From positions 64,001 through 128,000 of the IMG/VR virus record IMGVR_UViG_3300021399_000111: a DNA stretch of 64,000 nucleotides, one strand, 5' to 3'. Of this stretch, positions 20,927-55,727 are shown one piece after another. Position 1 is the stretch's first letter. Each line of letters begins with the position of its first letter. The translations under genes and the position numbers were made by a program. The notes below the pieces were generated by a model. It did not search any database. It was not told where the DNA came from and saw only the letters and a program-made list of their open reading frames with translations. The stretch is from a virus. Taxonomy: Duplodnaviria; Caudoviricetes.

Positions 20927-21172
20927 TTAATCATTATTTATTTTGAATTGATAAAAAAAGCTTCCAATCCAAGAAAGTGTTCCTGCAAGTAATGGAATCT
21001 GATTAAGGGCTATCGAGATATGAACTAAACTCAATCCTTCAATAAGCACTTTACCTATTGTAATTTTAGCAATCCAGCCTACAAAATAACCAAACCAGAA
21101 GAAAAGAAATGGCTCAATTAAAAAGAATATAATGAAAAATATTAATACTTTATATAAATTATCTCTTTTCAT
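20927..21172 (-). CDS. Small membrane protein
   Basis: Hydrophobic; coupled to phosphoesterase gene. Confidence 0.6.
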   Translation of the reverse strand: MKRDNLYKVLIFFIIFFLIEPFLFFWFGYFVGWIAKITIGKVLIEGLSLVHISIALNQIPLLAGTLSWIGSFFYQFKINND

Positions 21173-21716
21173 TTATTTTATTTTTTATCCTTTCAATAAT
21201 ATCATCAAGAGACCATGGAGTACAATTATTAGTATCCATTTCACAATGAAAAATAAGTCCTTTATCCCAATCAGCAAATGGATCTTGTGTATGACTATGT
21301 CCACAAAGACTAATCATTTTTGCGGAAAGTGGTTTATCATCATCAAAATTGGAAGTAATACAAGGATAATGTGAAAGATAAAAATGATATTTACCATATT
21401 GAAGAAATTTACCTTCACAAATTTCAACAACATTCCAACAATGATTATAGAGTTTCATTCTATTATCACCATCATGGTTTCCGCGGATAATATGAATATT
21501 GCCTTTAAGCTGCTTAATACAATATAGTCCTTCTATATCATCATTAAGCATCATATCTCCAAGACAATAAATATCATCATCTGGATTTACAATATTATTC
21601 CAATTATGTATAATAGCATTATTCATTTCATATACAGAATCAAATCCGCGTGGGCGCCAAAGGAACTCGCGAGCATGACAAAAATGTGGATCACTAGACA
21701 TAAAAATTCTACCCAT
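21159..21716 (-). CDS. Calcineurin-like metallophosphoesterase
   Basis: SDPHFCH, LGD, GNHD, SHYP, GHSH. Confidence 0.88.
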   Translation of the reverse strand: MGRIFMSSDPHFCHAREFLWRPRGFDSVYEMNNAIIHNWNNIVNPDDDIYCLGDMMLNDDIEGLYCIKQLKGNIHIIRGNHDGDNRMKLYNHCWNVVEICEGKFLQYGKYHFYLSHYPCITSNFDDDKPLSAKMISLCGHSHTQDPFADWDKGLIFHCEMDTNNCTPWSLDDIIERIKNKINEKR

Positions 21717-22245
21717 TTGAAGTCTCCTTATTATTTACTTTGAATAAATGCTTTCTTTCTTGATCTGTATCGTCTATAATGTGAATAATATCAAAACCCT
21801 CTTCGAAAGTTGGCATAGTGATTTGTGTTGCCATTCTTCGGATTACCTGCTCAGGAACATAAAATCGAGTGTTAATACGATTTTCATTTCTGTGAAGAGC
21901 CCTCCATACAGGAACTTTAAAAAATACAATTTCAACACAACAATCTTTTAAAGACATTCCTAATGCACGAAGAAGTTTTGTACGGGATGCTTCATTAATA
22001 TGAGTGGCATCCGCAATAACAGTTTGTCCATTATCAAGAGCTTTTTTAATTTCAGATACAAAAATATCATAAACTTGTTTTTCTTTATGAAAATAATCTT
22101 CTCCATCTTCGAGTAAAGAAAATCGAATTTGATCACGAGAAACTAACTTATCAATATTTGCTGTTGGATGCTCATAAAGCTCATTTGCATAAGTAGATTT
22201 GCCCGAGCCGGGGATTCCACTCATCATAATCAATCTTTTGCTCAT
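21709..22245 (-). CDS. P-loop kinase (AAA_33, polynucleotide 5'-kinase-like)
   Basis: GIPGSGKST, SRDQIR, DATH, RNENR, VPEQVIRRM. Confidence 0.8.
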   Translation of the reverse strand: MSKRLIMMSGIPGSGKSTYANELYEHPTANIDKLVSRDQIRFSLLEDGEDYFHKEKQVYDIFVSEIKKALDNGQTVIADATHINEASRTKLLRALGMSLKDCCVEIVFFKVPVWRALHRNENRINTRFYVPEQVIRRMATQITMPTFEEGFDIIHIIDDTDQERKHLFKVNNKETSNG

Positions 22246-22533
22246 TTAAATAACACCTTCTTTCTTCATTTTGTCTTTAAAGATACCATAAGGAAGGATT
22301 CTGTTTTGTTGTTCATCAAAATTATGGTGTTCAAATTCAAATAGAAAATCATCATGGCTATATTTAGAACCAGGAATGCATTCGACATGATTAATTGTGT
22401 CATTGCAAGTTAAACACCAAAGTCGTTTAAGGTGCCCCGGTGCTCGTTCTTTTCCCTTAACTCTAACTATTGGCAAACCGCGGCTGCCGCATTTACAACA
22501 ATAAAATTCATGATCAAGTATTAATGTTCCCAT
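22246..22533 (-). CDS. Zn-ribbon hypothetical protein
   Basis: YCCKCG...GHLKRLWCLTC. Confidence 0.6.
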   Translation of the reverse strand: MGTLILDHEFYCCKCGSRGLPIVRVKGKERAPGHLKRLWCLTCNDTINHVECIPGSKYSHDDFLFEFEHHNFDEQQNRILPYGIFKDKMKKEGVI

Positions 22534-22611
22534 AAAATATCACTCCTTTATTTGATTTTCTATATATATTATAATATATTTTTTATAGAAAATCAAATAA
22601 AGAAAATTTAA

Positions 22612-22836
22612 TTAAACAAATTGATTTAAAAAAGTATCAAATTCTATTGCATCACTAGGATATTCAACAGTAACACCTTGAGAAACATCAATGGACATAA
22701 TTCCCATTAAACTTTTTCCATCAATTACATATTTACCTCTTTTAAGAGTTACATCTCCTTCTACTCTTGTTGCTTCTTGGATAAAATTAGTTACATCAGC
22801 GAGTCCATAAATTTTAATATATTTAGTTGCTATCAT
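22612..22836 (-). CDS. HPr-like protein (Ser46 motif kept, His15 absent)
   Basis: VIDGKSLMGIMSID; no His in sequence. Confidence 0.8.
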   Translation of the reverse strand: MIATKYIKIYGLADVTNFIQEATRVEGDVTLKRGKYVIDGKSLMGIMSIDVSQGVTVEYPSDAIEFDTFLNQFV

Positions 22837-22905
22837 AATATACCTCCTTTTTATACAACAACTAGAGCGAGTTTTTCTCGCTCTAGTTTATTAATTTTAT
22901 TTAAA

Positions 22906-24090
22906 TTACTGGTGGTAACGAACTAGAAACTCATTAGATACTGCCTTGAAACTTCTAGTCCCATCTGGAGATCTAAATACGAGCCCTTCTCTCATACCTT
23001 CATCAATAACAGAAGTGCCAGTTGCAATTTTGAGTAACTCGTCAACAGTATCGGGAAGAATAAAATGCTCATTGACGATAGGAACCCAATGGATGCCATA
23101 TCTTTCAAGGAACTCTTTTGCTTCAATAGAATTCCATCTTCCATCCTGTGAAGTAATGAAATTAAAAGCACGGAAATCATGGTCAGCCATTCCATAGTAT
23201 CTTCTCTGAATGCCCGCGCCGAAAGTTTCTCCCTGGATAGTTACCCATTTAAGAGATTTATTGTTTTTAAGAATATCCTTAAGTACATTCTCAATATTGT
23301 ACTTTTTAGCCATTTCAAGATAAACATTAGTATCATAGAAACAAGCTTTGTCAGGAGTATCAAAAACTACATTTCGAGAGCAAACATAGAAATCATACTT
23401 TCCAAACTTATCTCTTTTCATAGTGAAAGTAGTGCTTGTACCATCTATCTTCTCAGTTGCAATCCACTCAGACTTATCTTCAAGAATCCAAGTCATGTTC
23501 TGGACTCTCTCTTCGTCAGTCTTTACAACCCAAGCAGGCCAGTTTCGTACATCTCTCTTCTTACCAAAAAGAAGAATAAATACTCTCCGCAGAAACTTAT
23601 TTCTCTTAATTACTTTACCCCATTTTCTTGCAATCTTAGGATGACGAGCAAGAGCTGCATTAATTCTAGCATCAGGGTTAGATTTAGCCTTTCTCTTATT
23701 ATCCTCTGGCTCAGCATAGGTTACGCCAAGCTTTTCAGTAAGGAAGTCTCCTTCTACAAGAGAAGTAGCATCCCAACCAAAGTCCTTTGCGCTCATAAGA
23801 AGACCCTGAGAATAAAAACCAGGATTTTTTCCACCAAAAGTATACTTTTGAGTTTTTACATTACCATGTTTCTTTTCAAGAAATGCAAACTCAGGCTTAG
23901 TAGTGTCTACATGAGAGTCGATTTCAAAATAAATTGCAAGATCTCCAGCATTGAAAGTCCCTTTTCTAACCATGACCTTCCAACCGCCAACTACAGCAGC
24001 TTCGCAGTTGTCAGAACCAACAATAGGCTCAATAGCATCAATTTTTACTACATAAGCGAGTTCTCTTACATTAGTATTAGGATTAAGCAT
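22906..24090 (-). CDS. ATP-dependent RNA ligase (DRB0094/Rnl2-like) with N-terminal OB-type domain
   Basis: YFEIDS, SQGLL, KTDEERVQN, motif I TEKIDGTS, QGE, EGLV, FKAVSNEFL. Confidence 0.88.
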   Translation of the reverse strand: MLNPNTNVRELAYVVKIDAIEPIVGSDNCEAAVVGGWKVMVRKGTFNAGDLAIYFEIDSHVDTTKPEFAFLEKKHGNVKTQKYTFGGKNPGFYSQGLLMSAKDFGWDATSLVEGDFLTEKLGVTYAEPEDNKRKAKSNPDARINAALARHPKIARKWGKVIKRNKFLRRVFILLFGKKRDVRNWPAWVVKTDEERVQNMTWILEDKSEWIATEKIDGTSTTFTMKRDKFGKYDFYVCSRNVVFDTPDKACFYDTNVYLEMAKKYNIENVLKDILKNNKSLKWVTIQGETFGAGIQRRYYGMADHDFRAFNFITSQDGRWNSIEAKEFLERYGIHWVPIVNEHFILPDTVDELLKIATGTSVIDEGMREGLVFRSPDGTRSFKAVSNEFLVRYHQ

Positions 24091-24213
24091 TTTTTACACC
24101 TCTTTTCTTTTCTCTTTCATTTTCTATAAATATTATAACAAATATTTTAATAAAAATCAAATAAAATGCGGCGGTCCAGTCTTTGAGATCTCTTAAGCTA
24201 GCCCGCCGCATAA

Positions 24214-24489
24214 TTATTTCACAGGAACAATATTATCTGAATCTGAAGGAATAATATCTTCACCAATTTGTCCATTGGGACCGAATTCCTTAATTCTTAC
24301 AATAGTGTTCTTTCGCAATCCGCCAAAGGTATTGATAAAAACTCCTAATGCAGCTTTAGCATCTACTGCAGTTACACCACGCGCTTTTGATAATCTAATT
24401 GTTGTTTTAGTATGAACAGGATCTCCATATTTTGCTTCTTTTGTTGGATACCATTCAAATTCATAACTTCTAAAAATTTGATTAGCCAT
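24214..24489 (-). CDS. Hypothetical protein (start revised to MANQIF)
   Basis: GGAGG RBS upstream of 24489. Confidence 0.55.
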   Translation of the reverse strand: MANQIFRSYEFEWYPTKEAKYGDPVHTKTTIRLSKARGVTAVDAKAALGVFINTFGGLRKNTIVRIKEFGPNGQIGEDIIPSDSDNIVPVK

Positions 24490-24511
24490 TATTAATATCT
24501 TCCTCCATTGA

Positions 24512-25285
24512 TTAATCAAAATATATTTCTTCAAAAGTGTCTAAGTCAAGAAGAGCGATACGATTAGATACAGCGGTACACATGTCTATACAAAACTTAT
24601 GTCCATCACAGTAACGAATAATTGTAGGTTTAGGATATGATGTATCATCTCCATATAACCAATTATGCGCTTTTTTTATATCTTCTTTTGTTTTAGGCGG
24701 TTGACCTTTATATCCGAATTCATATTCCAGAAATTGAACTGGAGTATGCCCATGAACTAAATAAATAGTATTAGGGTCTTCTTTTGTGAAAAAATCATCC
24801 TCTACCCAATTATCATAGAAATGACTTCTATCCCAAAGGGGGTCATGGGGACGGTGTGAAGCTATTAAAGAATGCCCGGCGTGTTCCAAAATTACAGTAT
24901 GAGATCCTTTAACAGAATAATATACTAATTGTTTAGGTAATTTAGAAATAATATTAATATAATGATCTTGAATAAATCTAGGGAATTTAAGTAATTGATT
25001 TACTGTTAAATTCTCACTATCATCAAAAATTTCCCAGCGGTTAGGCTTGCGTCTATGGTTTATTTCTTCCACCATCATATCTTCGTGATTACCACAAAGA
25101 AAGTGTACTCTAGGATCATCTATTAATACATTAAATAATTCTAAGCCATGCGGGCCTCGATCAACTGCATCACCAATAAAATAAAGTGTATCATCAGGCT
25201 GCAACCAATTTAAAACTTTTTTGCCTAATTCAAGTTGAGCATGCCAATCTGAACTTGCAAAAACTCTTCCCATAAAAAACACCAC
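24512..25285 (-). CDS. Ser/Thr protein phosphatase-type metallophosphoesterase
   Basis: SDWH, GDAVDRGP, GNHE, HAG, LWDR, HGHTP, CID. Confidence 0.88.
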   Translation of the reverse strand: MVFFMGRVFASSDWHAQLELGKKVLNWLQPDDTLYFIGDAVDRGPHGLELFNVLIDDPRVHFLCGNHEDMMVEEINHRRKPNRWEIFDDSENLTVNQLLKFPRFIQDHYINIISKLPKQLVYYSVKGSHTVILEHAGHSLIASHRPHDPLWDRSHFYDNWVEDDFFTKEDPNTIYLVHGHTPVQFLEYEFGYKGQPPKTKEDIKKAHNWLYGDDTSYPKPTIIRYCDGHKFCIDMCTAVSNRIALLDLDTFEEIYFD

Positions 25286-25335
25286 TTCCTTTCTTTTATA
25301 ATTAATTATATCATAATTTTTTTAAGATTTCAAAT

Positions 25336-25364
25336 TTGCGTTTTTTAAAAAATTATGATATAAT
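25336..25364 (+). promoter_or_regulatory. Sigma-A promoter of fliD (TTGCGT-N17-TATAAT with TG), back-to-back with a minus-strand promoter at 25305-25333
   Basis: Direct motif match. Confidence 0.75.
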
Positions 25365-25458
25365 AAAATTAGACAGAAATGTATAATTTTTTTAGAGAGA
25401 AAATTATATATTATGAGAAGAAGGATTTTCTCAATATTTTACAAGGAGGTAAAAAAGT

Positions 25459-26832
25459 ATGGGTATGAAATTAACAGGACTTGTTTCTGGAATGGATACT
25501 GATGCAGTTATTAAACAAATGACATTAGCATACACAGCAAAAAAAGATAAAGTCTGGAAAGCTAAAGAAACTTTAACTTATAAACAAGATGCTTGGAAAA
25601 ATCTTAATAAAGAAGTTTATGATATGTTTACAAAACTTTCTAAACTAAGATTAACTTCTACTTATCAAAGAAGTGAAGCCTCTTCATCAAATGAAAATAT
25701 TGTAACGGTTGCGGGAGATAAAATTCAAGGGCAGCATGATGTAACAGTGAAACAAATTGCTACTCAAACTTATCTTACTGGAAATATTGTTAATCAAAGT
25801 CAACCTATTAATGTTTCTGGTAATTTGACTGTTACAATAGGCGGGAAAGAAAAAGAATTAAATATTACTCCAGATATGTCAATGGAACAAGTTGCTAGAA
25901 AATTAACCGAAGCGGGAATTATTGCTAATTTTGATGAAAATAATGCAAGATTATTTTTAGCGTCAAAAACAACAGGAGCAAGTAGTGATTTTAATATAAG
26001 CGGAGATGCAAGCTTACTAGATGCCATAGGGCTAGGGTCTTCCGCAATAAAACAAGTTGGTAAAGATTCTATTATTAATGTAAATGGAGTGGATTTTGTA
26101 TCTTCTTCAAATAAATTTAATATTAATAATATGACAATTACCGCAAAATCATTAGGTTCTGCTACTGTTGGAATGAAAACAGATGAACATATTTTTGATA
26201 CTGTTAAATCTTTTATTAAAGATTATAATGCTTTAATTAAAAAAATTGATAGTTCTTATAATAACACTGCCGCAAAGGGATTATCTCCATTAACCGATGA
26301 AGAAAAAGATGCTTTAACAGATAAACAAATTGAAGAATGGGAAAGTAAATTAAAAGAGAGTGCTTTAAGCAAAGATGAAACTTTATCCTCTTTAAGTTCT
26401 TTGTTAAAAACTACAATGAGTTCTATTTCTGTTGATGGAATTAATTTAACTTCTATGGGTATTACTCTTGGAGGATATTTCACAACAGAGAAAGATGAAA
26501 GAGGCGTTTATAATATTGATGAAGATAAACTCCAAAAAATAATTGCAGAGAACCCTGATAAAGTAATAAATTTTGTTACTAAACTTGCGGGAACCTTATA
26601 TGATAAATTAAATACAAAGATGAAATCATCTTCTTTAAATAGCATTTATAGTATCTATAATGATAAGCAAATTAAAAATAATCTTGCAAATTATGATAAG
26701 AAAATTGCTGAATGGGAAGATAAGATTGTAAAAATGGAAGATAAGTGGTATAAGCAATTTGCAAGAATGGAAAGCGTATTAAGTAAAACGCAGAGCCAAG
26801 CAAATTATTTATCAAATTTCTTTGGAATATAA
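25459..26832 (+). CDS. fliD: Flagellar filament cap protein (HAP2)
   Basis: GLVSGMDTDAVIKQM, KQDAWK, V.VKQIA, GKDSIINVNG..FVSSSNKF, FIKDYNALI, PLTDEEK, QFARMESVLSK.QSQ.NYL; AAGGAGG RBS; only credible plus-strand gene. Confidence 0.92.
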   Translation: MGMKLTGLVSGMDTDAVIKQMTLAYTAKKDKVWKAKETLTYKQDAWKNLNKEVYDMFTKLSKLRLTSTYQRSEASSSNENIVTVAGDKIQGQHDVTVKQIATQTYLTGNIVNQSQPINVSGNLTVTIGGKEKELNITPDMSMEQVARKLTEAGIIANFDENNARLFLASKTTGASSDFNISGDASLLDAIGLGSSAIKQVGKDSIINVNGVDFVSSSNKFNINNMTITAKSLGSATVGMKTDEHIFDTVKSFIKDYNALIKKIDSSYNNTAAKGLSPLTDEEKDALTDKQIEEWESKLKESALSKDETLSSLSSLLKTTMSSISVDGINLTSMGITLGGYFTTEKDERGVYNIDEDKLQKIIAENPDKVINFVTKLAGTLYDKLNTKMKSSSLNSIYSIYNDKQIKNNLANYDKKIAEWEDKIVKMEDKWYKQFARMESVLSKTQSQANYLSNFFGI

Positions 26833-26834
26833 AA

Positions 26835-26866
26835 AAGGAGAAGGTTTTAAACCTTCCCCAATTTTT
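26835..26866. terminator. Bidirectional terminator between convergent fliD and DUF2828 genes
   Basis: A-tract, ggagaagg-tttt-aaa-ccttcccc hairpin, T-tract. Confidence 0.65.
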
Positions 26867-28318
26867 TTAGTATACAGCTAAATATCTCTCAGAAAGAAGA
26901 ATATCAAGCATAAGTTCCATTCCATTCTTCCCTGTTGCCACCTGTTTAAAAATCAGCGGAGAAGATCCACTAACAAAAGAGACATTAGGGCCGAGATCAA
27001 GGAATGTATCATTACGAGCATCTACATTCCAATAAACCAACCGAGGCATTTTAAGCCCAACTGCTTCCCACTCTTTCCGCATGATTTCCATTTCTGTGGC
27101 AGTTCTTTCCTCGCTCCAGCTTCCCACAGTCATAGCATTAATTTCCATATCGGAAATAACTACAACAGTATCAAGGCGGTCTTCAGGCTTTGCCGCAAGA
27201 CTTGCTTGCTTAAGAAGTCTGAAGGTTTTTACAAGGTCTGTATCTTCACAGAGATTAGTGCGATAAATGCGGCGAACCTTATCTACAAAATCAACACCTT
27301 CAATTTTGATTAATTGAGGGCGAGAACTAAAACTAATGTAGTGGTTCTTAAAAGGACCTCCAATGCGTTCCGCACAATACATGCCAAGCCCAATAGCCAT
27401 ATCAATAGGAGTTCCATGCATTGAACCAGAAGTATCAACGACACAGATCATCTTACAAGGTTCGCCCTGTAAAACATCAATTTGATTCTCCCAATACTTT
27501 TCAAGCATTAATCTATCTGTATCACTGATATTGTAAGGGTAAGCCTTATGAACAATTTCATAAGGATAAAGCGCTCCAGCGTTCACCTTAGAATTCTTAT
27601 CCTGCGCGAATGCTTCATATTTCTTTGCAATAATATCTCTACGAGCAAAAGCATTGCGATAAATAAGACCCGCCTTAGAAGGGATTTTATCAAATTCAAT
27701 TTCATCCCAACGATTTTCACTCATAAGTTTTTCAATAATATTGATGCGAGAGCGCAGAGTAGAAAGTACTTTTCTATACTCTTTGTGAGTAAAACCAAGT
27801 GCTTCCCGCACGGCATTACCAGCCCTTTTAGTTTCTGCGGAAGATGCATTTTCAGAAGGAAGCCATTTTGCAAGTAAGCTAGGTGTCTTGCAATCTGCAT
27901 CAAGAGCAAGCTGATGAGTAATAATCAGCATAGCCTCATTCCATACGGGAGTATCAAGAGTAGTATAAATTAAGTCATCCCATCTACCATATTCAGACAC
28001 ATTTTCAAGATTGCGGCGGGCTGCCTCAGGGAAATTCTTGGCAAGCCAATTAAAGCACACACGAAAGAACCTACGCTCCCCCTGCCCGCCGCGAATATCA
28101 CGAAGATAAAATAAACACTTTAAAGCAATAGATTCATTCTCTTCAAAAGCATTTTTAAATGCAAGAATACAATCTTCATCAGAGCGTTTTCTATATGCTC
28201 CGCAAAGTGCAAACATATCCAAAATCGCACTTCTAGTTGTATTATGCTTCAATCCGCCATTCTCAGTATATCCAAAATTAGTAGTTTCAATTAAAGCATC
28301 AAGTAATGAATTCATCAT
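26867..28318 (-). CDS. DUF2828 family TROVE-like helical protein with C-terminal vWA domain (Ro60-related)
   Basis: YTENG, LFYLRDIRGGQGERRFF, EYGRWDD, AKWLPSE, LYPYEIV, MIDAS VDTSGSM, ISDME, YWNV. Confidence 0.85.
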   Translation of the reverse strand: MMNSLLDALIETTNFGYTENGGLKHNTTRSAILDMFALCGAYRKRSDEDCILAFKNAFEENESIALKCLFYLRDIRGGQGERRFFRVCFNWLAKNFPEAARRNLENVSEYGRWDDLIYTTLDTPVWNEAMLIITHQLALDADCKTPSLLAKWLPSENASSAETKRAGNAVREALGFTHKEYRKVLSTLRSRINIIEKLMSENRWDEIEFDKIPSKAGLIYRNAFARRDIIAKKYEAFAQDKNSKVNAGALYPYEIVHKAYPYNISDTDRLMLEKYWENQIDVLQGEPCKMICVVDTSGSMHGTPIDMAIGLGMYCAERIGGPFKNHYISFSSRPQLIKIEGVDFVDKVRRIYRTNLCEDTDLVKTFRLLKQASLAAKPEDRLDTVVVISDMEINAMTVGSWSEERTATEMEIMRKEWEAVGLKMPRLVYWNVDARNDTFLDLGPNVSFVSGSSPLIFKQVATGKNGMELMLDILLSERYLAVY

Positions 28319-28417
28319 TTTCCTTTTTCTCCTTTTTCCTATTGGAAGGCTATTTTCATAACCAAAAAAAATAAGGGATAAAATATTAAAACAATAGTAA
28401 TATTTTCTAGATTATTT

Positions 28418-28529
28418 CTAGGGGCAAATCTGTTTTGAAAATATTTTCTTGTTTTAATATTATCCCAAAATGGCGCCAAATACTGTTAATTTTCTTTATC
28501 CCAACAATAAGAATTGCAGTAAGCCCCTT
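28418..28529 (-). ncRNA. Y-RNA-like motif copy 1 (in DUF2828 leader)
   Basis: AGGGGC-TTACTGCAA...GCCCCT-AG closing stem. Confidence 0.55.
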
Positions 28530-28545
28530 TTAAAACAATATAAAA

Positions 28546-28612
28546 CAAGACACAAAAATAATAATATTATCAAAAAAATATTTGTTATTTATAATTTTGC
28601 TGTATGTGTCTT
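28546..28612 (-). ncRNA. Y-RNA-like motif copy 2
   Basis: AAGACAC-ATACAGCAA...GTGTCTT-G. Confidence 0.6.
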
Positions 28613-28615
28613 AAT

Positions 28616-28688
28616 AGCCGCCAGAGGGACTTGAACCCCCAACCCTTTCATTACAAGTGAAATGCTCTACCAATTGAGCCATGGCGGC
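28616..28688 (-). tRNA. tRNA-Thr(UGU)
   Basis: Cloverleaf, TTTCA-CT-TGT-AA-TGAAA. Confidence 0.95.
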
Positions 28689-28701
28689 AAATGGATTAGA
28701 C

Positions 28702-29001
28702 TTATTCAGTCTTTTCCGTTTTAGCAGACTTTTCCTCTGCCTTAGCTCGCTCAGCCTTAATCTTTTCAGCCTTTGCGATGAGAGCTTTATTAGTGCATCT
28801 TTTGTTATCTACGGCGTCAATAAGATGATCTTCCGCCATAAGACGCTCCTGATAAAGCTGTTCACTATGCTTTGTCATTTCTGGCACGGAAAGAGATTTC
28901 ATACTCCGTACCATATTCTGAAATCTACGAAAAGTATCCGCAGAAGGCATTACATGCTTTACATCATTTACTGTTGAAATTTTAACTTCATTCTTTGCCA
29001 T
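28702..29001 (-). CDS. Hypothetical basic/helical protein
   Basis: Own promoter and RBS. Confidence 0.6.
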   Translation of the reverse strand: MAKNEVKISTVNDVKHVMPSADTFRRFQNMVRSMKSLSVPEMTKHSEQLYQERLMAEDHLIDAVDNKRCTNKALIAKAEKIKAERAKAEEKSAKTEKTE

Positions 29002-29106
29002 TTTTCTTTTCCTTTTTCTTTTGTTTCATTTTCTATAAATATTATAACAAAAATTTTATTAAAAATCAACTTTATGTTACTACACTCCCCACAAGAGTAT
29101 AAAGAA

Positions 29107-29457
29107 TGGAGATGACGGGAGTCGAACCCGTGTCTTGAAACCTTACTAATTATCAACCTTTTACGCAATAGTGTTTTTAAAGTGTTCTCTCACTTTTCGA
29201 GCTTTTCCTACTTCCACCACTTTATTTTGAGAAAATAAAGAAAACAATGTGTTTTTTATTCATAAAATCAAGCATTGACCAAACACGAGGAATAACTTGA
29301 AGTTCCATTAAAGAACTCAAGCAGCTGCCTGAGCAAGTCTTCTAGGAAAGTTTACAATTTTCTTGTCGTTTAAATTTATAGGTTGGTTGCATAACGCGCA
29401 TACCATTTCGTGCGAGTTAATAATATTCAAGCCCCAATCGATAGCCATTTCATCCCC
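29107..29457 (-). ncRNA. ssrA: tmRNA; tag (A)DKKIVNFPRRLAQAAA* at 29317-29367
   Basis: 5' GGGGATG pairs with 3' CATCTCC-A (G3.U), T-arm ACGGG-TTCGACT-CCCGT, 351 nt, internal ORF ending AAA-stop. Confidence 0.93.
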
Positions 29458-29609
29458 TTAACATCTCGGTTTGTCGATAACCGAAAACGCCAATGGTGTA
29501 GCTATATGCTCAAAGAACCTAGGCTCACTCTTTAAAAGTTAGATCTGCTCTACCCAAGCGACTTCCCATTGGATTAATCATTCTGCGGAAATTGCTAACT
29601 CCCGCATAG

Positions 29610-29680
29610 CAGCGGATACAGGAGTCGGACCTGTACGACATGAGTCAAAGTCATGTGTCCTACCATTAGACTAATCCGCC
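29610..29680 (-). tRNA. tRNA-Gln(UUG), T-loop TCC variant
   Basis: CATGA-CT-TTG-AC-TCATG. Confidence 0.9.
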
Positions 29681-29775
29681 ATAAGGGCTTTAAAAAAATG
29701 TTCACGATTTCACGCGGATCTAGTTTACGCACCCCTGCCTTGTTCTAGAATTGACAGGTTTCTACTAGATCCGCA

Positions 29776-29850
29776 TCGGGGTAGCGGGATTCGAACCCAC
29801 GACCTCGTGTACCCAAAACACGCGCTCTAGCCAAACTGAGCCATACCCCG
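29776..29850 (-). tRNA. tRNA-Pro(UGG)
   Basis: CGTGT-TT-TGG-GT-ACACG. Confidence 0.95.
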
Positions 29851-30131
29851 AGATACTCTAAGTAGATATAATGTATCGCGACCCATCATTTATTTTAAGA
29901 TTTGTAGCTCTCAAACCTCATTATATCTGAACTTAAAGTATAGAACAATTCATGCCGCATCTATCTGAAACTTGCCACGATATTTCCCTTTTGTAAGAGC
30001 TATAATATGCAAAAAGGAAAATAAAAAAGTTATTTATTCTATTGCTATGCTTTTGCATTTATAAAAACAAATAACTTTCTTTATCTATAAATAATTATAA
30101 CAAAAATTTTGAAAAATGTCAAAAATTTTAA

Positions 30132-30202
30132 CAGGCTCTGTAGGAATCGAACCCACATCTAAGGATTTGGAGTCTATTATGTTACCATTACACCAAGAGC
30201 CC
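30132..30202 (-). tRNA. tRNA-Trp(CCA), weak anticodon stem
   Basis: ATAGA-CT-CCA-AA-TCCTT (2 mismatches). Confidence 0.85.
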
Positions 30203-30286
30203 ATAATTAACGCATATTTTATGCGTTAATTTATTTTTTATTGTATATATATTATAACAAATATTTTTTATAATGTCAAAAATTTT

Positions 30287-32647
30287 TTATGGACAATTAT
30301 TATATAATCTAATATGGTAACCAGTATTAGTATAACCATTTGTTATTGTTGTCCAAGTAATAGCGGTGCCTCTACCTACCATACGATTATCAGAATTTCT
30401 AAAAGGTGTTAAATCATTACAATAAATAGTAAACCAACCTAATCTTGAAGATTGTGTATTAAATATGTTTTCTAATGCAGATGGCCTGTTCAATCCATTT
30501 TTAAAGAAAAGATTACAGTTAAGATAAGAACTGCAGTTAGAAAACATATATTGTGTATTATATATATTATTTTGGATATACATATTTACTTGTCTTAAAT
30601 TACTGCAATTACGAAACATATAAGCGGTATTGTTAATAAAAGTGTCTTCTGGAATGTCGATTGGATAATTTAATTTTTTACATTGTGCAAATAATAATTG
30701 AGCATCTATTAATGTGACATTATTACCAAAAGTTATGCTTGTATTAAAATTGTTACAATTATTAAACATCATTGCCGCATTATTTATATAGACATTATCA
30801 AATATAATTGGTTGATTAAAGGAAAGGCAATTATTAAATGCAATATTTGCATAGTTAATTATACAATTTGAGAAATTAACTGGAGCATTATAAATGCTAC
30901 TTTGAAATAAAGCTGTTATACTACTTATTGTAGAATTATAAAAATTAAAATTAAAATTTTTATTCAAAGTAATTAAAGACCCTTGAAAATTTGTATTAAT
31001 TATATTTAAATTAGTAATGTATCCAGGGATTCTAAGATGTGTATATGTAAATAATGAATTACTAATATTAATCATTTTTAAATTATTACAATTATAAAAC
31101 ATATCAGTTACACCATCACTATGAGAATCAATATTAATATTTTCAATATTGATAGATATTAATTGATTGCAATTAGCAAACATATAATTAGGATACATTA
31201 TATTTATATTATTTAAATTTAATTGTTGAATGTTACTACAATTAGTAAACATACCTAGAGCATTTTGAATGTTTAAATTATTAATATCTATTTGAAATAA
31301 TGAAGTGCAATTATTAAACATCCGAGCTGCTGAAGTAAAAGTGGTTTGATCAGCAAAATTTATTTGTTCTAATTTTGTGCATTGATTAAACATGTTTTCA
31401 GCAATTATTCTGGCTTTATTATTTAAAGTAAAATGACTTAAGTTAGAACAACCACTAAACATTTCATGCATATCAATTAATTCATTTTCTTCTTCATTTA
31501 TAATAAAATTAATATTTGCATTTAAATTATTGCAATAGTCAAACATATAAGAGTAGTTAGTCCCTGTCATTTTAATATTTATATCGGTATTAAAATTAGA
31601 AAAACTAAACATACTACCCCCATCATTTATTGATAATATGTTTATTTCTTCTCCAAGATCAGTAAAGCAATGAATATTTCCATTAAAATTATAACAACCA
31701 TAAAACATACTATATGCAAAAATATTCGTTTCATTGGATATTCCATAAAAATTAATAGGACTGTTTAATGAATGACAACTAGCAAACATACCATTGCAAA
31801 ATAATGCATTTACTTTAGTCGTAGTACCCTCCATTTTAATTATATTAATTGGTGAATTTAAATTACTACAATCTACAAACATATTTTCACCATAAAAATG
31901 TAAATCTGTTGCTACAGATGGTAAAAATACGAAATTACTATTAACTGTTGTAAGTCGATTGCAATAACCAAACATGCCATTATACCATCCACCAGATGAT
32001 ATATAGTTTTTTGTACTAAATTTAGAAAGACTAGATCCATAAAACATATTTTCACAACTTGATTCATAAGAATTCATTAGCATATTTTGATTACAATAAA
32101 AATCAGTTATTTCTTGACTTTGGAAAGACCCTACTAAATTATTAAAACAAATATCATCGATTGCATAGAAATTAATTGATTTAAACATATAATATGATGG
32201 TCGATAGGTTGTTGCAAAAGAATAGGCTAAATTTATACCATCTTTATCAAATGCTTGTGATGCATTCGCAGTATGATTATTACCAAAATAAAATTTTTTA
32301 CTATAAAGATAATGATTAAACATAACATAACTTAAATCTGTTATATTGTTTCCAATATAAATACTTCCGCCATTCTCCCCAAATATGAATGGCATTAAAG
32401 AAACACTTTCAGTTGACATTCCAGGGACTGCTGTCACATTATATTGATACTCAACATAATCAGAAATACTTGGTAAAGTATTATTCATTAAACAAAAATA
32501 ATCTCGTTCAGTATTTAATAATGTATTTTGAATAAATATTGAATTGATAGCATCTGGAAATTCATAAGGAGTATAATAATTATCTACATTTAATCTATCT
32601 CTAATCGCATTTGCTATATCGCTAAAAATTGATTGTATATTTTGCAT
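30287..32647 (-). CDS. DUF285/BspA-type Asn-rich repeat protein (putative virion adhesin)
   Basis: Repeated MF.NC.NLN.PI units; N-terminal IANAIR...TP.EFPDAINSI module. Confidence 0.8.
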   Translation of the reverse strand: MQNIQSIFSDIANAIRDRLNVDNYYTPYEFPDAINSIFIQNTLLNTERDYFCLMNNTLPSISDYVEYQYNVTAVPGMSTESVSLMPFIFGENGGSIYIGNNITDLSYVMFNHYLYSKKFYFGNNHTANASQAFDKDGINLAYSFATTYRPSYYMFKSINFYAIDDICFNNLVGSFQSQEITDFYCNQNMLMNSYESSCENMFYGSSLSKFSTKNYISSGGWYNGMFGYCNRLTTVNSNFVFLPSVATDLHFYGENMFVDCSNLNSPINIIKMEGTTTKVNALFCNGMFASCHSLNSPINFYGISNETNIFAYSMFYGCYNFNGNIHCFTDLGEEINILSINDGGSMFSFSNFNTDINIKMTGTNYSYMFDYCNNLNANINFIINEEENELIDMHEMFSGCSNLSHFTLNNKARIIAENMFNQCTKLEQINFADQTTFTSAARMFNNCTSLFQIDINNLNIQNALGMFTNCSNIQQLNLNNINIMYPNYMFANCNQLISINIENINIDSHSDGVTDMFYNCNNLKMINISNSLFTYTHLRIPGYITNLNIINTNFQGSLITLNKNFNFNFYNSTISSITALFQSSIYNAPVNFSNCIINYANIAFNNCLSFNQPIIFDNVYINNAAMMFNNCNNFNTSITFGNNVTLIDAQLLFAQCKKLNYPIDIPEDTFINNTAYMFRNCSNLRQVNMYIQNNIYNTQYMFSNCSSYLNCNLFFKNGLNRPSALENIFNTQSSRLGWFTIYCNDLTPFRNSDNRMVGRGTAITWTTITNGYTNTGYHIRLYNNCP

Positions 32648-32659
32648 TATTTTACCTCC

Positions 32660-34888
32660 TTATATATTATTATATACATAAATATTACCATAGTAGACAC
32701 CATATTCAAAAGGAGTCCATGAAATATAGGTTCCAGTAATAGAAGTATAATAGCCCCCTTGAGATTGCACATTAATAATTTTGTTAAAACAATTATTGAC
32801 ATCATTAACATGAATATTAATTCTTTTTGAAGAATCATATCCCGCAATAAAACTATCCACTCCTATAAGATTAGGGCAATAATTTAAATAAATATCTGAT
32901 GGAATATTGGATTTCATATTAGCAAACATCCCATTTATCATTTGAAGATTTTCTGCCATAGCAAAATTAAAAGGAGATGTTAAAATTAAATTAGAGCAAT
33001 TATAAAAAGCCCAAGATAAATCTATACAGTTATTATCTGAAACTCTGTTCATAGGCCCTGATTGTAAATTAGTACAATTATAAAAAATTCTACTAGCATT
33101 TTGATATTTTGACCATGGGAAAGGTTGATTTAACATGATTAAATTATTACATTCTTCAAACATGCTAACTGCATTTTTAAAATGATTTCCATATGTTGAT
33201 AAAAAACGAAAATTAAAATATTGCAAGTTAGTGCAATAATGGAACATATTATTGCCAGTAGTTATGTAACATTCTTCATAAGGATTTAATATTACACTTT
33301 GTAATTTAGTGCAGTATTCAAAAGCTGATTCTGCATTTCCACTAATCTGACAATTAATTTCTAATATTTGATTAAAATTTTCGCACCCATAAAACATCCA
33401 TGACATATTTCTAATTATAGCATTTGCATTATTAGAAGGAAAAATAATAGGTTGATTTAAATTATAACAATTTATAAACATATTATTCATATAAAGATTT
33501 ACTGGGTATCTTCTTTTGTACGAATTATAATAATTTGAATGTAATATTGACATTGGACTATTATAATTTTCACAATTGCAAAACATAGAGGAAAAATCTA
33601 TAAAATCTCCTTTAGATGTAGAATTATTGCATCTAATGTAATCAACATTAATAGATGAATTAAAATTATAACAATTTTCAAACATATTTGAAAAATTAAA
33701 ACTATTACCAAAAAATATAGAATAAGTATAATCATCAGTATTTTCTGCATCAAACATATTTATCCATTGTATTGTTCTTAAATTCTGACAATTTCTAAAT
33801 AGCTCAGTATAATTTCTTGTAAAACAATTATTAAAAACTACTGTAGTATTTAAATTATTACACTCAGCAAAAACTCCTATTAATGAATTAACAATTATAT
33901 TTTCAGATGTAAAATATAAAGGCTGATTTAAATTATAACAGCCTGCAAACATATAATCCATTCTAATTGGATAGTATGTTTGAGCAGATGTTGTTGCTGT
34001 TCTGGTATGAATATTAAAAGTAATTGGAGAATTTAAATTTTCACAATGAGAAAACATTCCTCTCATACTTCCCGCATAGTCTCCTTGTGGTTCAAAATTA
34101 TCCGTATAATATGAATTTCCAGAAAGAATCATGTTATTTGGTATATATAAAGGTTGATTAAAACTATAACATTCTGCAAACATATTTTCAGCATTTCCTG
34201 TAGCAAAATTTTGAAAATTTATTGGTTGATTGAAAGAAATGCATCGACGAAAACTATTAGAAGTATTACTAAAAATATATTCATTTAAATAAGATGGAAG
34301 CTGTACTATATCAGGGAAAATTAAAGGTTGATTAAAACTATATTGCATTCCTACTGAATGCAAAAATAAACCATATAAATTTTTAAGATGTGGTGTATTT
34401 TTAAAGTTTAATGGATAATTGTATGTTTCTTGCATTCGAAACATATTTGATATGCTAACTAAATTATTACAGTTTTGACTAAAATATACTGGACAAGAAT
34501 TATAAGTATCCTCCCAATATAAATTATGGACTTCACTTATTTTTGGTCCAATAGTAATATAATCTACTCCTGCGTTTGCGGGAATCGTATAACCATTTAT
34601 AATAACATCATTACATTCATTGATTATAGCATCATGCATTTTATATAATACTTTTTCAGATGATGGTTCAAAAGATTGTATTTGCATTAATCCTTCTGTG
34701 GGATATTCCATTTCAACAATACGCGGAGATCCAGAAAATGGCACTATTGAATTTATCATAGGAGCCATTTGTTCTGGTGTAAAATTTGTATTTATACTTA
34801 AAGTTTCTCTTAAAGCTACAGCTACATTATGAAAAATTTGAGGTATATTTATATTAAGAGGATTTTCCCAATTTGGTATTATAGACAT
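32660..34888 (-). CDS. DUF285/BspA-type Asn-rich repeat protein, paralogue
   Basis: Repeated MF.EC..FNQPL units; VAVALR...TPEQMAPMINSI module. Confidence 0.8.
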   Translation of the reverse strand: MSIIPNWENPLNINIPQIFHNVAVALRETLSINTNFTPEQMAPMINSIVPFSGSPRIVEMEYPTEGLMQIQSFEPSSEKVLYKMHDAIINECNDVIINGYTIPANAGVDYITIGPKISEVHNLYWEDTYNSCPVYFSQNCNNLVSISNMFRMQETYNYPLNFKNTPHLKNLYGLFLHSVGMQYSFNQPLIFPDIVQLPSYLNEYIFSNTSNSFRRCISFNQPINFQNFATGNAENMFAECYSFNQPLYIPNNMILSGNSYYTDNFEPQGDYAGSMRGMFSHCENLNSPITFNIHTRTATTSAQTYYPIRMDYMFAGCYNLNQPLYFTSENIIVNSLIGVFAECNNLNTTVVFNNCFTRNYTELFRNCQNLRTIQWINMFDAENTDDYTYSIFFGNSFNFSNMFENCYNFNSSINVDYIRCNNSTSKGDFIDFSSMFCNCENYNSPMSILHSNYYNSYKRRYPVNLYMNNMFINCYNLNQPIIFPSNNANAIIRNMSWMFYGCENFNQILEINCQISGNAESAFEYCTKLQSVILNPYEECYITTGNNMFHYCTNLQYFNFRFLSTYGNHFKNAVSMFEECNNLIMLNQPFPWSKYQNASRIFYNCTNLQSGPMNRVSDNNCIDLSWAFYNCSNLILTSPFNFAMAENLQMINGMFANMKSNIPSDIYLNYCPNLIGVDSFIAGYDSSKRINIHVNDVNNCFNKIINVQSQGGYYTSITGTYISWTPFEYGVYYGNIYVYNNI

Positions 34889-34953: not shown

Positions 34954-36075
34954 TTATTCAAATAAACAATCAGGACCACTTACTCCACATTTTATATCAT
35001 TATCTAATATTTCTTGCGGGAGACGGCTTCTAATATCTTTAAATTCTTCATCGCTGCCATAAGGTTCGTTTTTTACCTTTTCCATAAATTCAAAAAAAGT
35101 AACCTGTGGAATAATATTAATTAAATCTTGAGCCTTTCCCGCTAACTGCATTGTATAAAGTCCTTTGAGAATATCATCACTAATTTGACTTTCAATTTCT
35201 TTATAACATTCATTATAAAATTTCTTTGCATTAAAGAAATTTTGTTCTGCAAAAACAGGCTTCCGCTCAAGGCATTCAATATATGTAAAATAATGACCTA
35301 CCATCATTTCTGCGGTAAATCTCGCAATAGAACCATTAAAAGGATTTTTCTTTCTACAAAATTTAATAGCATTAATAGATGCAATAGTAGCTCCCCATTG
35401 ACAAAGATCAAAATTATATTGCGGCATTCCATCTTCATCTTGCCCAATTCTAGTAATAGAATGCTCAGAGCCAATCCGCCATAAATAAACAGGAGTATCT
35501 TGAATCACATTGATCATTAAAGGGCTCCCTTCAATGGTCATGCGGATCTTCCAATTTAGCTCACCATCCTCCATAGCGCGCAATTGAGTGAAACCAATTC
35601 CATTCTTGCGAAGAAAAGCTACATTGTAGAGTCTCCCGAATACCCATGGGTGTCCCACATCGCCGCGAGGAATAAACCGAACACCTTGAGGATTATTTTG
35701 CACTTCTTGGCAAAAAGGAGCTTGAACTTCAATAACTTCAGGTTTATTTACTCCTCTGAGTAAAAATTCAATAGAAAATGGAGTAAAGAATACATCATCC
35801 GCATCAATAAAAGTAATCCAATCTGTCTTGCATGCATCTAAACATCTTTGTCTTGCAAGCCCAGGGCCTGTATTTTTTTCACATTCAAGAATTGTAATAT
35901 CTAACTGCGGGAATGCTTTTTTCACAAAATCATAATCATCATTTGGGTTGTCTTTCGCAATAATAACTGAAATCATATCTTTTACAGTTTGAATATTAAT
36001 TGAAGAAAGACAATCTATAATATGAGCTTCCGCTTTAAAAGCGGGAATACCAACAGTTACTTTCTTTTCATTCAT
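34954..36075 (-). CDS. Glycosyltransferase family 2
   Basis: VGIPAFK, NTGPGLARQ, WITFIDADD, ED motif. Confidence 0.9.
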   Translation of the reverse strand: MNEKKVTVGIPAFKAEAHIIDCLSSINIQTVKDMISVIIAKDNPNDDYDFVKKAFPQLDITILECEKNTGPGLARQRCLDACKTDWITFIDADDVFFTPFSIEFLLRGVNKPEVIEVQAPFCQEVQNNPQGVRFIPRGDVGHPWVFGRLYNVAFLRKNGIGFTQLRAMEDGELNWKIRMTIEGSPLMINVIQDTPVYLWRIGSEHSITRIGQDEDGMPQYNFDLCQWGATIASINAIKFCRKKNPFNGSIARFTAEMMVGHYFTYIECLERKPVFAEQNFFNAKKFYNECYKEIESQISDDILKGLYTMQLAGKAQDLINIIPQVTFFEFMEKVKNEPYGSDEEFKDIRSRLPQEILDNDIKCGVSGPDCLFE

Positions 36076-47025: not shown

Positions 47026-47135
47026 CAAGACACAATTAAAGCGTGGATTCGAACCACGATTACTTGACTTCCATCAAGCGTCCTTCCCCTTAGACGACTC
47101 TGGCTAGGAGCCAGTATGTTTGCTGTTTATGTCTT
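47026..47135 (-). ncRNA. Y-RNA-like motif copy 3 with embedded tRNA mimic (D, 6-nt-loop anticodon arm, T)
   Basis: AAGACAT-AAACAGCAA...CGTGG-TTCGAAT-CCACG...GTGTCTT-G. Confidence 0.7.
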
Positions 47136-54875: not shown

Positions 54876-55727
54876 TCAAAAGCATTGCCTGAGGCAATCC
54901 GTACAAACATAATAATCTCCATACATATCTTTTACATGATGTTTGTCATTATGATTAAGAGAACTTCCGCATATTGCACATTTTGTACTATCACCGCGGG
55001 AAGGGAAAATATTATAGTAAATTGCAGAGCGATCCGCTATATACTCAAACTTAGGAATTCCTGATGCAGCAAATTCAAGAATTCCGCAAACTCTATCGAA
55101 AGTACTTTCTAACCAATCTGTATGTAATAATTCAATATTCTGATGTTCATTTTCATAGCCAACAGAAAGATTAACTGCCGCAATATTCCATGCGGGAGCC
55201 AAAAAACTAATATCTGAATAACTACCCCATGCAGATTTAAAACCAAATGACTCGATAAATTGTGTAAATGATGCATTATTACAATTATAAAAAACGCAAT
55301 CATTTTTACCGCGTCTATCTAACTGAATTATTGCATGCAAATTTTCCAAAGGGCATTTTGGTTTTTCTGAGACGAGGTTCTGGGCCCCCAGCGCCCCAAG
55401 CTCCTCATCACAAGTAAAAATAATTGAAGGTCTATATCCTTGTTCAATTATTTGCACAATAAGATAAACACCAGCTCGATCATCTGCTCCTAATAACTGC
55501 GGAGACCACATTACCTTTTTACTTTTGTCATAATAAATATCAGTAGGCGGAATGGATTCTACTGTGTCTAAGTGAGCCACTAAAGCAATTTGTAATTCAC
55601 CTTGTGCATAAATATAATCTTCACCATCAACAACTGTATTATAGTATCTTTGTAAAAAATTCTTAAGTGTCGCTTTCAGTTGTTCCTGAGTCATCTTGCA
55701 AATTGTTTCCATCAAGGTCGTGTTCAT
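54876..55727 (-). CDS. M28/M20-family Zn peptidase-like protein with C-terminal Zn finger
   Basis: AHLDTV, LGADDRAG, DEE, DRRG, SDIS, NLSVGY..EH. Confidence 0.8.
   Translation of the reverse strand: MNTTLMETICKMTQEQLKATLKNFLQRYYNTVVDGEDYIYAQGELQIALVAHLDTVESIPPTDIYYDKSKKVMWSPQLLGADDRAGVYLIVQIIEQGYRPSIIFTCDEELGALGAQNLVSEKPKCPLENLHAIIQLDRRGKNDCVFYNCNNASFTQFIESFGFKSAWGSYSDISFLAPAWNIAAVNLSVGYENEHQNIELLHTDWLESTFDRVCGILEFAASGIPKFEYIADRSAIYYNIFPSRGDSTKCAICGSSLNHNDKHHVKDMYGDYYVCTDCLRQCF

Follow-up and report, generated by a model that had tools for sequence, protein, structure and literature searches.

What use could a phage have for the protein that caps the bacterial flagellum? FliD (HAP2) caps the tip of the filament as a pentamer or hexamer, promotes flagellin polymerisation and is exported by the flagellar type III system. 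The window analysed here, a 64,000-nucleotide stretch of a Caudoviricetes genome (positions 64,001 to 128,000 of IMG/VR record IMGVR_UViG_3300021399_000111), carries a plus-strand coding sequence at 25459-26832 that specifies 457 amino acids plus stop with the D0-D1-D2-D3 architecture of this cap. Pfam identified FliD_N (PF02465) at residues 10-103 (E 2.7e-17; 63.6 bits against a cut-off of 24.8; 96 of 97 model positions) and FliD_C (PF07195) at residues 201-445 (E 8.7e-29; 101 bits against 25.4; 235 of 236 positions). A profile of the phage FliD family aligned end to end with Salmonella FliD (9m6i/9gnz; E ~1e-18; profile 6-481 with chain 7-461). The AF2 model (pLDDT 89.7) has the coiled-coil D0 termini, helical D1 and D2-D3 beta head of solved caps, with helices at residues 14-63 and 402-454 and beta domains at 70-243; its best Foldseek matches were FliD caps (6sih, 1.7e-20; 9gnz, 9e-20), and its TM score against D2-D3 crystal structures was 0.65-0.70. 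Because Pfam, the PDB profile search and the predicted fold agree, the reading frame is a full-length canonical FliD, intact with both D0 segments as the preliminary description had claimed. Conservation across the domains, D0 termini included, was 0.62-0.69 in the phage clade versus 0.63-0.73 in bacteria. Relative to FliD (HAP2) of Salmonella and Campylobacter (9gnz, 9m6i, 6sih), the phage protein shares length class, domain order, fold and D0 helices, but it is at most 40% identical to bacterial FliD, its gene lies away from flaG, fliS and fliT, and it belongs to a compact clade in which loop deletions have removed about 40 residues and zero domains have been added. A PHROG search with the protein matched no family.

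The gene resides in a complete phage genome of 141,935 bp with direct terminal repeats. It sits in a minus-strand replication and RNA-repair region, away from the plus-strand structural module (3.4-46.6 kb), and is flanked by a minus-strand metallophosphoesterase gene and a convergent DUF2828/TROVE-like gene (-); the order metallophosphoesterase/fliD(+)/DUF2828 is repeated in independent assemblies. The earlier statement that fliD is the only credible plus-strand gene roughly holds within the window but fails genome-wide, where the structural module is also plus-stranded. In relatives, fliD lies either beside the flagellin gene within a split dnaE region or directly upstream of dnaE. As in phage morons, a single gene in opposite orientation thus has a predicted promoter and terminator of its own and a site that differs among related phages. 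Classical morons are expressed from prophages, whereas no lysogeny genes were found in the present phage and its cassette appears ancient rather than sporadic. A search of the phage genome for a tyrosine integrase or a serine recombinase/resolvase found neither, and the lineage is apparently virulent. The closest isolates by DnaE (40% identity) are temperate SPbeta-like phages, and the phage may have a carrier or plasmid-like lifestyle despite the missing integrase.

Direct reading of the upstream region confirmed the previously proposed sigma-A-type promoter of fliD (25336-25364, +), which comprises TTGCGT (25336-25341), a 17-nt spacer and an extended -10 element, TGaTATAAT (25356-25364). A generic promoter scan overlooked it because the -35 element fits only 3 of 6 consensus positions. 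The same TTGC..-17-TGnTATAAT arrangement was found in five relatives, including L003, L007, L008 and L092; in a sixth leader extract, that of L093, the -10 TGnTATAAT alone is visible. Upstream, the divergent promoter of the metallophosphoesterase gene (25305-25333, -; TTGAAA-17-TATAAT with TG; 11/12 consensus) forms the left edge of the cassette. At the opposite end, the terminator noted earlier is a bidirectional intrinsic one (26837-26859; 10-bp stem, T-runs on both strands) common to fliD (+) and the DUF2828/TROVE-like gene (-). A conserved block 3′ of the -10 element (25369-25411, +) is kept in part in the leaders of relatives. The case for it as a second class of promoter, as it had been described, is weak: the pattern TTRGRYAR-N32-TAW matched 8 times where 3.5 matches were expected, and 8 was also reached in 2 of 100 shuffles.

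Downstream of this block, the leader presents two GGA motifs. The first, at 25423-25425 and 36 nt before the start codon, occupies the AGGA tetraloop of a hairpin with an 8-bp stem (25414-25433, +; putative CsrA site 1), and the second is contained in the Shine-Dalgarno sequence AAGGAGG (25443-25449, +; putative CsrA site 2). In nine phage fliD leaders, ACAAGGAGG was kept in most, with CAAGGAGG in L010 and ACAGGGATG in L011, and the GGA at the Shine-Dalgarno sequence was kept in all nine. When the nine leaders were aligned as 29-nt windows centred on GGA, 88.9% of cells were paired versus 71.9% in shuffles (0 of 500 shuffles as high), compensatory changes occurred in 6 of 7 pairs, and pairing fell to 44-63% once the register was slid. 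The two-site architecture was present in 8/9 fliD and 5/5 flagellin leaders of phages and in 37/49 bacterial flagellin leaders, versus only 8/78 bacterial fliD leaders; among other ORFs of the present phage it appeared in 7/130. Moreover, the GGA of flagellin leaders lies 30-42 nt before the start codon, a geometry that the phage fliD leader fits. The fliD leader is therefore probably a flagellin-type two-site CsrA leader with putative binding; alternatively, the 5′ GGA hairpin may be an mRNA stabiliser rather than a CsrA site. A leader of this type was absent from the preliminary description.

Two stem-loops with the motif ANGGA constitute the proven CsrA site in Campylobacter jejuni flaA, for which the FliW partner switch has also been described (PMC4894983). 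The phage leader shares its two-GGA layout and geometry with the Hag/FlaA-FliW-CsrA switch of B. subtilis and C. jejuni (PMC4894983, PMC6529632), but here the architecture belongs to phage genes and is carried by the mRNA of fliD, and CsrA and FliW would have to be supplied by the host. A CsrA gene is present in all four candidate-host Lachnospiraceae genomes, namely those with the closest flagellar genes, whereas CsrA and FliW were sought in the phage genome and neither was found. The combination of a sigma-A-type promoter with a flagellin-type CsrA leader also distinguishes the phage gene from most Lachnospiraceae fliD genes.

A second flagellar gene of the phage encodes a 270-aa flagellin (G000:C1:54999-55811(-)) and lies outside the window, 8.2 kb before its start and 33.6 kb from fliD. 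The description of fliD as a stand-alone gene with no other flagellar gene nearby is thus correct inside the window but not for the genome. Flagellin and fliD were both present in the three large IMG/VR relatives (146, 122 and 147 kb; 3/3) and likewise in L004 and L008; fliC and fliD form a conserved pair. In a comparison of 80 bacterial flagellar loci, ORF by ORF, with the phage genome, flagellin and FliD were the sole matches. For FliS, the phage genome gave only a sub-threshold match inside fliD itself, and a FlaG-like ORF was not found. Phage fliD therefore lies outside the usual late-operon setting (flaG-fliD-fliS-fliT), a setting that is context and does not define the FliD protein family.

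Phylogenetic analysis placed 29 phage-type FliDs in a single clade (SH-aLRT 99 for the split), and all members examined, nine in addition to the window's own, had a phage context. Their identity to Lachnospiraceae and other bacterial FliDs was 32-40%, even where the flagellins were 70-90% identical; in bacterial pairs whose flagellins share 70-75% identity, FliD identities were 42-76%. Far from being a near-identical copy of a host gene without phage homologues, fliD thus belongs to a phage-only set as far as its members were examined. Close relatives in IMG/VR were recovered by an alignment-based search (four) and not by a single-protein search (none). The GenBank phage collection yielded 6 weak matches only, including Listeria 'phage' fragments with 26% identity to FliD; the best match, MT836129.1, was discarded as a mislabelled complete bacterial flagellar locus. 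The composition of fliD is phage-like (29% GC, 15% GC3), and the eight GCGG sites counted earlier were recovered as 5 + 3 GCGG/CCGC tetramers, which account for 8 of its 15 CG dinucleotides; genome-wide, these tetramers occur ~1.8-fold above Markov expectation.

Comparison with relative L003 revealed strong constraint on both genes. FliD was 86% identical (dN/dS 0.16, dS 0.49), against 56-70% for flanking genes. At the DNA level, a block of 81-91% identity extended from ~25335 through the end of fliD (stop codon, 26832), and the promoter and leader part, which includes the fliD promoter, was 77% identical. The flagellin was 99% identical (dN/dS 0.013, compared with 0.13 for DnaE; dS 0.64), and its promoter and leader were 95% identical, above the conservation of synonymous sites. 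By these estimates, fliD and the flagellin gene are under purifying selection that is stronger than in their neighbours. The sharp edges of the identity block had raised the idea of a recent transfer of fliD between phages. The remaining dS (0.49 for fliD, 0.64 for flagellin) led us to give this idea less weight; strong constraint accounts for most of the contrast between the block and its flanks. Judged from its phage-context clade, phage-like composition and purifying selection, fliD is a gene long held in the phage lineage, in agreement with its earlier portrayal as long domesticated.

The history of the flagellin is less uniform. A first tree suggested at least four origins for the phage flagellins, a claim we cut back after AU tests: a single phage-flagellin clade was rejected only with the long G002 flagellin included (p = 1.9e-6), and the four short phage flagellins, at p = 0.21, may form one clade. 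Because the rejection hinges on the G002 flagellin, we claim only that at least one replacement took place. We infer that the hosts are gut or rumen Lachnospiraceae, for the one reason that the closest flagellar proteins come from there. For the relatives, the names of samples and MAGs suggest a rumen habitat.

On balance, we lean towards reading fliD as a moron-like cassette: the host flagellar secretion system would export its product, which would then top a filament of phage flagellin so as to regrow or replace it. Under this proposal, fliD and the flagellin gene would constitute a two-gene filament kit kept by a lineage of large Lachnospiraceae phages. Each gene would be transcribed in the infected cell from its own sigma-A-type promoter and hence independently of the host late flagellar sigma factor. 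Each mRNA would bear a flagellin-style leader, with GGA motifs in a hairpin loop and in the Shine-Dalgarno sequence, so that translation would proceed only once the host FliW-CsrA switch signals an open export gate. Phage FliD would then leave through existing host hook-basal bodies, cap their distal tips and chaperone the polymerisation of phage flagellin, possibly of host flagellin too, such that infection would be accompanied by filament regrowth or replacement. What the phage would probably gain is a cell that stays motile once host gene expression wanes, an altered filament surface, or both. Of the functions suggested in the preliminary description, remodelling of host flagella fits best; nothing supports titration of FliT, given the constrained D0 termini and flagellar-style translational control.

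A more specific version, which we advance only tentatively, is that lytic phages of motile gut or rumen Clostridia carry a minimal repair kit, made up of a vertically inherited cap and a flagellin replaced at least once (in the G002 lineage), with housekeeping promoters and FliW-CsrA gating. The kit would comprise exactly the two proteins needed for filament regrowth on an existing hook-basal body, and the infected cell would thereby stay motile, or alter the surface of its filament, after host shut-off.

The same cap could also be harmful to the host. Exported phage FliD might act as a dominant-negative cap at filament tips or hook junctions, stopping or altering the growth of host filaments, so that the infected cell is immobilised or no working receptor is left for flagellotropic competitors (or for the progeny of the phage itself). 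The divergence of phage FliD from known host FliDs (32-40% identity where the flagellins would predict 42-76%) could equally fit such a changed, for example inhibitory, function, and the small loop deletions of the compact clade and a promoter independent of the host flagellar programme point the same way. A blocker, however, needs no flagellin, and the phage keeps one at a dN/dS of 0.013; in addition, constraint is as strong as in bacteria across every FliD domain, D0 and D1, which face flagellin, among them, and the leader logic ties synthesis to active export, as expected of a productive filament protein. We therefore consider a blocking cap unlikely, if worth keeping in view.

Alternatively, the leaders themselves could be the active agents, with their GGA motifs titrating CsrA, or the phage flagellin titrating FliW, and filament assembly being secondary; the host CsrA regulon would be reprogrammed or host flagellin synthesis shut down. 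This idea draws on the conserved two-site GGA leaders of two unlinked genes, on the flagellin promoter and leader being more conserved than synonymous sites, and on C. jejuni, where the mRNA of flagellin antagonises CsrA (PMC4894983). A sponge, however, needs neither a 457-aa ORF constrained from end to end (dN/dS 0.16) nor a near-frozen flagellin protein sequence. Furthermore, we know of no binding of FliD to FliW or CsrA, which also counts against a regulatory role, and we regard such a hijack as quite improbable.

That FliD, with or without flagellin, serves in the particle as a fibre or adhesin for the ends of flagellar filaments seems very improbable. Binding to filament tips is natural to FliD, and weak secondary Foldseek matches to phage baseplate and sheath chains were observed (E ~1e-3), but the gene lies far from the structural module, stands alone on the opposite strand as a cassette with a promoter of housekeeping type and a leader of CsrA type, and shifts between non-structural sites in relatives; the protein has no added domains and no PHROG family, and both its D0 termini are constrained. 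The virion-adhesin role proposed earlier thus found no support. Finally, the prospect of an assembly chimera, bacterial contamination or a recent functionless host gene, which the bacterial origin of other 'phage' database matches such as MT836129.1 had made worth checking, is effectively refuted by the complete genome with its direct terminal repeats, the identical gene order in independent assemblies, the phage surroundings of the examined clade members, the identity of at most 40% to any bacterial FliD, purifying selection and phage-like composition.

To our knowledge, experimental proof that a phage manipulates the flagellum has come so far from one system, the Enterobacter prophage flagellin combined with TldR. 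In this closest known case, the phage likewise carries its own filament protein: the prophage flagellin FliC_P is assembled on the host flagellar machinery and replaces host flagellin, and together with the RNA-guided repressor TldR it remodels the filament (10.1101/2023.11.30.569447; PMC13418256). That system, however, belongs to a temperate phage of Gammaproteobacteria, has flagellin only, without a phage fliD, and silences host fliC through the TnpB-derived TldR. In the present phage, with its presumed Lachnospiraceae host, a search of the genome for OrfB_IS605/TnpB-like (TldR) proteins gave no match, as had that for an integrase; flagellin comes together with a cap gene whose clade occurs in phage contexts, and control appears translational, via a CsrA-type leader. 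The same two genes, fliC and fliD, have appeared among the auxiliary genes of lytic viruses on rumen viral contigs (PMC11740651), in a catalogue entry without genome context, phylogeny, selection or regulatory analysis.

Collectively, our findings suggest that a lineage of uncultured Lachnospiraceae phages of 120-147 kb, unrelated to the Enterobacter system, has long carried both distal filament proteins under strong selection, with a distinctive wiring of sigma-A-type promoters and CsrA-type leaders on both genes. They raise the questions of whether a virus can supply not only the subunit of a bacterial flagellum but also its cap, whether CsrA control reaches fliD, and whether motility kept or altered is a gain for a lytic gut phage. 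If the repair-kit reading is true, the pair would be the motility counterpart of cyanophage psbA, and fliD would be a direct CsrA target. Lachnospiraceae flagellins are major gut immune antigens, and a phage-driven change of the filament could therefore matter for host-microbiome interactions.

The window covers bases 64001-128000 of the record of a large phage; this record, 141,935 bp long with direct terminal repeats, is rated 100% complete. The minus strand of the window encodes topoisomerase II subunits, an NAD ligase, a DnaB-type helicase, PhoH, an endolysin, an RNA-repair island, 25 tRNAs and a tmRNA, and the fliD ORF at 25459-26832(+), 457 aa, is the single plus-strand ORF within this block. 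Pfam analysis of its product identified FliD_N (E 2.7e-17) and FliD_C (E 8.7e-29), both models being covered nearly in full, and the FliD family profile aligned end to end with the solved Salmonella FliD. An AF2 model of the phage protein (pLDDT 89.7) displayed terminal D0 helices, a helical D1 and a beta-rich D2-D3 head, with the Campylobacter and Salmonella caps as the best structural matches. Together, the profiles and the predicted structure identify the product as a filament cap protein that is both complete and canonical.

The preliminary description had assigned fliD two promoters and a terminator. A TTGCGT-17-TGaTATAAT promoter was confirmed at 25336-25364, and the same layout recurs in relatives; a bidirectional terminator was likewise present at 26837-26859, and the ATG is preceded by a good Shine-Dalgarno sequence. 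The motif proposed as a second promoter class did not hold up, occurring at a frequency only marginally above chance. The count of eight GCGG/CCGC sites in fliD was exact; genome-wide, these tetramers account for 30% of CG contexts, approximately 1.8-fold over the second-order Markov expectation, at 33% GC. An assembly chimera, raised as a concern, was excluded by the order metallophosphoesterase / fliD(+) / DUF2828, which is the same in independent metagenome assemblies, and an artefact explanation of the phage fliD was effectively excluded.

The RNA-repair/translation-rescue island surrounding fliD (21159-30203) comprises two metallophosphoesterases, a PNK-like kinase, an RNA ligase, a DUF2828/TROVE-like protein tRNA-Thr, -Gln, -Pro and -Trp, and the phage tmRNA (29107-29457), whose tag ends in LAQAAA. 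Within a 21-tRNA island (46.9-54.2 kb), ARAGORN assigned a four-base anticodon (ggaa) to a tRNA at 47033-47105(-); the call may be erroneous or may denote a frameshift-suppressor-like tRNA.

It had also been stated that no other flagellar gene lies nearby. A 270-aa flagellin (Flagellin_N, E 5e-46; Flagellin_C, E 9e-26) is in fact encoded 33.6 kb from fliD, at 54999-55811(-) of the phage genome (9000-9812 of the flagellin-bearing stretch L009), 8.2 kb before the window start and directly upstream of dnaE; the statement is correct for the window itself, and the phage has no further flagellar genes. When all phage ORFs were matched against those of 80 bacterial fliD loci, hits were confined to flagellin, FliD and, at a weak level, a GT2 glycosyltransferase, and profile searches of the phage genome detected no FliS, FliW or CsrA. 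As judged from these searches, flagellin and FliD are the full set of flagellar genes of the phage. The GT2 glycosyltransferase (34954-36075(-)), conserved in the nearest relative phage (L003), weakly resembles glycosyltransferases of bacterial flagellar loci (E 2e-7) and could modify flagellin by glycosylation, although its gene adjoins those of two giant BspA-LRR/DUF285 proteins (30287-34888).

Both genes were present in 3/3 IMG/VR relatives (146, 122 and 147 kb), and the pair is a lineage trait. In a 122-kb bioreactor phage (L004, 6021-14739), they are adjacent and lie between intein-like split dnaE pieces; this dnaE is in several pieces with LAGLIDADG endonuclease genes in between, and an IS200-type Y1 transposase is nearby. 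An RNA ligase gene adjoins flagellin in one relative, and fliD holds the slot upstream of dnaE in another. In the 147-kb relative (G004; loci L096 and L102), a single in-frame TAG interrupts the frame for flagellin, and that for FliD spans just 328 aa, matching FliD_C positions 49-236; these frames could reflect stop-codon recoding or decaying copies.

Each gene was compared with its counterpart in the nearest relative phage. FliD is 86% identical (dN 0.079, dS 0.49, dN/dS 0.16), six genes neighbouring fliD are 36-70% identical (dN 0.23-0.65, dS 0.64-2.55, dN/dS 0.14-0.36), flagellin is 99% identical (dN 0.008, dS 0.64, dN/dS 0.013) and DnaE is 83% identical (dN 0.119, dS 0.91, dN/dS 0.13). 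DNA identity was 81-91% over the fliD coding sequence, 77% over its promoter and leader (25335-25433), 37-65% in the flanks and 95% over the flagellin promoter and leader. Thus, fliD and flagellin, together with their control regions, rank with the most constrained sequences in these genomes.

A homologue search of the fliD product over 5.8 billion proteins recovered a graded series of FliDs (452-463 aa, 86% down to 44% identity), with phage genes around every member whose context was examined. The nearest bacterial FliDs, from Lachnospiraceae and Acetatifactor MAGs of mostly rumen/gut samples, reached at most 40% identity, and in an unrooted maximum-likelihood tree, the 29 FliDs grouped as phage type formed one split (SH-aLRT 99). 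For the phage flagellin, identity was 73-75% with the Lachnospiraceae flagellins of the fetched loci and 81-83% with the best metagenomic ones. FliD identity was 42-76% in bacterial pairs at 70-75% flagellin identity and only 32-40% in phage-bacterium pairs, indicating that flagellin and FliD divergence is decoupled. The FliD divergence extends over all domains, with per-domain conservation as high in the phage clade as within bacteria. A single clade for 5/5 phage flagellins was rejected (AU p = 1.9e-6) because the long flagellin of the G002 relative belongs to another bacterial type; the remaining four, all short, may share a clade (AU p = 0.21). At least one replacement of a phage flagellin has thus taken place.

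Between promoter and start, the fliD leader contains a hairpin (25414-25433) with an 8-bp stem and an AGGA tetraloop. The GGA of this loop is positioned 36 nt ahead of the ATG, and the Shine-Dalgarno AAGGAGG follows the hairpin. This layout recurred in 8/9 phage fliD leaders with differing stem sequences; in the loop-centred alignment, 88.9% of cells were paired, against 71.9% in shuffles and 44-63% in slid registers, and 6/7 stem pairs showed compensatory changes. The flagellin gene is preceded by a perfect TTGACA-17-TATAAT promoter, and its leader contains the hairpin CCACA-AGGA-TGTGG. Two-GGA leaders were found for 5/5 phage flagellins, 37/49 Lachnospiraceae flagellins, 8/78 Lachnospiraceae fliD genes and 7/130 other ORFs of the phage. 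In flagellin mRNA, the CsrA site established by experiment comprises two ANGGA motifs, located in a stem-loop and at the ribosome-binding site, and FliW, freed by flagellin export, antagonises CsrA (PMC4894983). All four candidate-host genomes checked encode csrA, in one case just upstream of fliD. Among the bacterial fliD leaders with a GGA-loop hairpin, the two from Acetatifactor MAGs (L020, L027) carry a GAGAAA-CGGA-TTTCTC hairpin similar to that of the phage. Some Lachnospiraceae may natively place fliD under CsrA control, and the phage leader may derive from such a leader.

The nearest studied system is the Enterobacter prophage fliC_P-tldR, which provides a flagellin without a cap and depends on a TnpB-derived repressor, whereas the present phage encodes both filament proteins and a search of its genome revealed no such repressor. 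A rumen virome survey listed fliC and fliD as lytic-virus-specific genes, without analysis (PMC11740651). No PHROG family matches FliD, and, Listeria fragments matching at 26% identity set aside, 50,697 deposited phage records contained no convincing FliD. The best phage-collection match (L105; GenBank MT836129.1, 'Bacteriophage sp.') was rejected as a mislabelled bacterial flagellar locus encoding FlgK, FlgL, FliW, FlaG, FliD, FliS, FlgN and pyruvate formate lyase. On these comparisons, we class this as a probable case of phage flagellar remodelling, here involving a FliD clade so far encountered solely among phage genes and putative CsrA-type control of fliD.

Regrowth of a filament that has lost its distal part, cap included, requires two proteins, the cap protein and flagellin. 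The simplest explanation of the observed features is a functional filament kit acting on the host's pre-existing basal bodies. These features comprise an intact cap and an intact flagellin without further flagellar genes, promoters of housekeeping type, putative export-sensing leaders, purifying selection that is very strong, and a genome in which no lysogeny genes were found. Rival explanations are that phage FliD acts as a blocking cap, that the phage provides a CsrA/FliW sponge, or that FliD is a virion component. If the phage does supply a filament kit, the benefit may be that the infected cell stays motile, that its filament surface is changed, excluding flagellotropic phages or altering recognition, or both.
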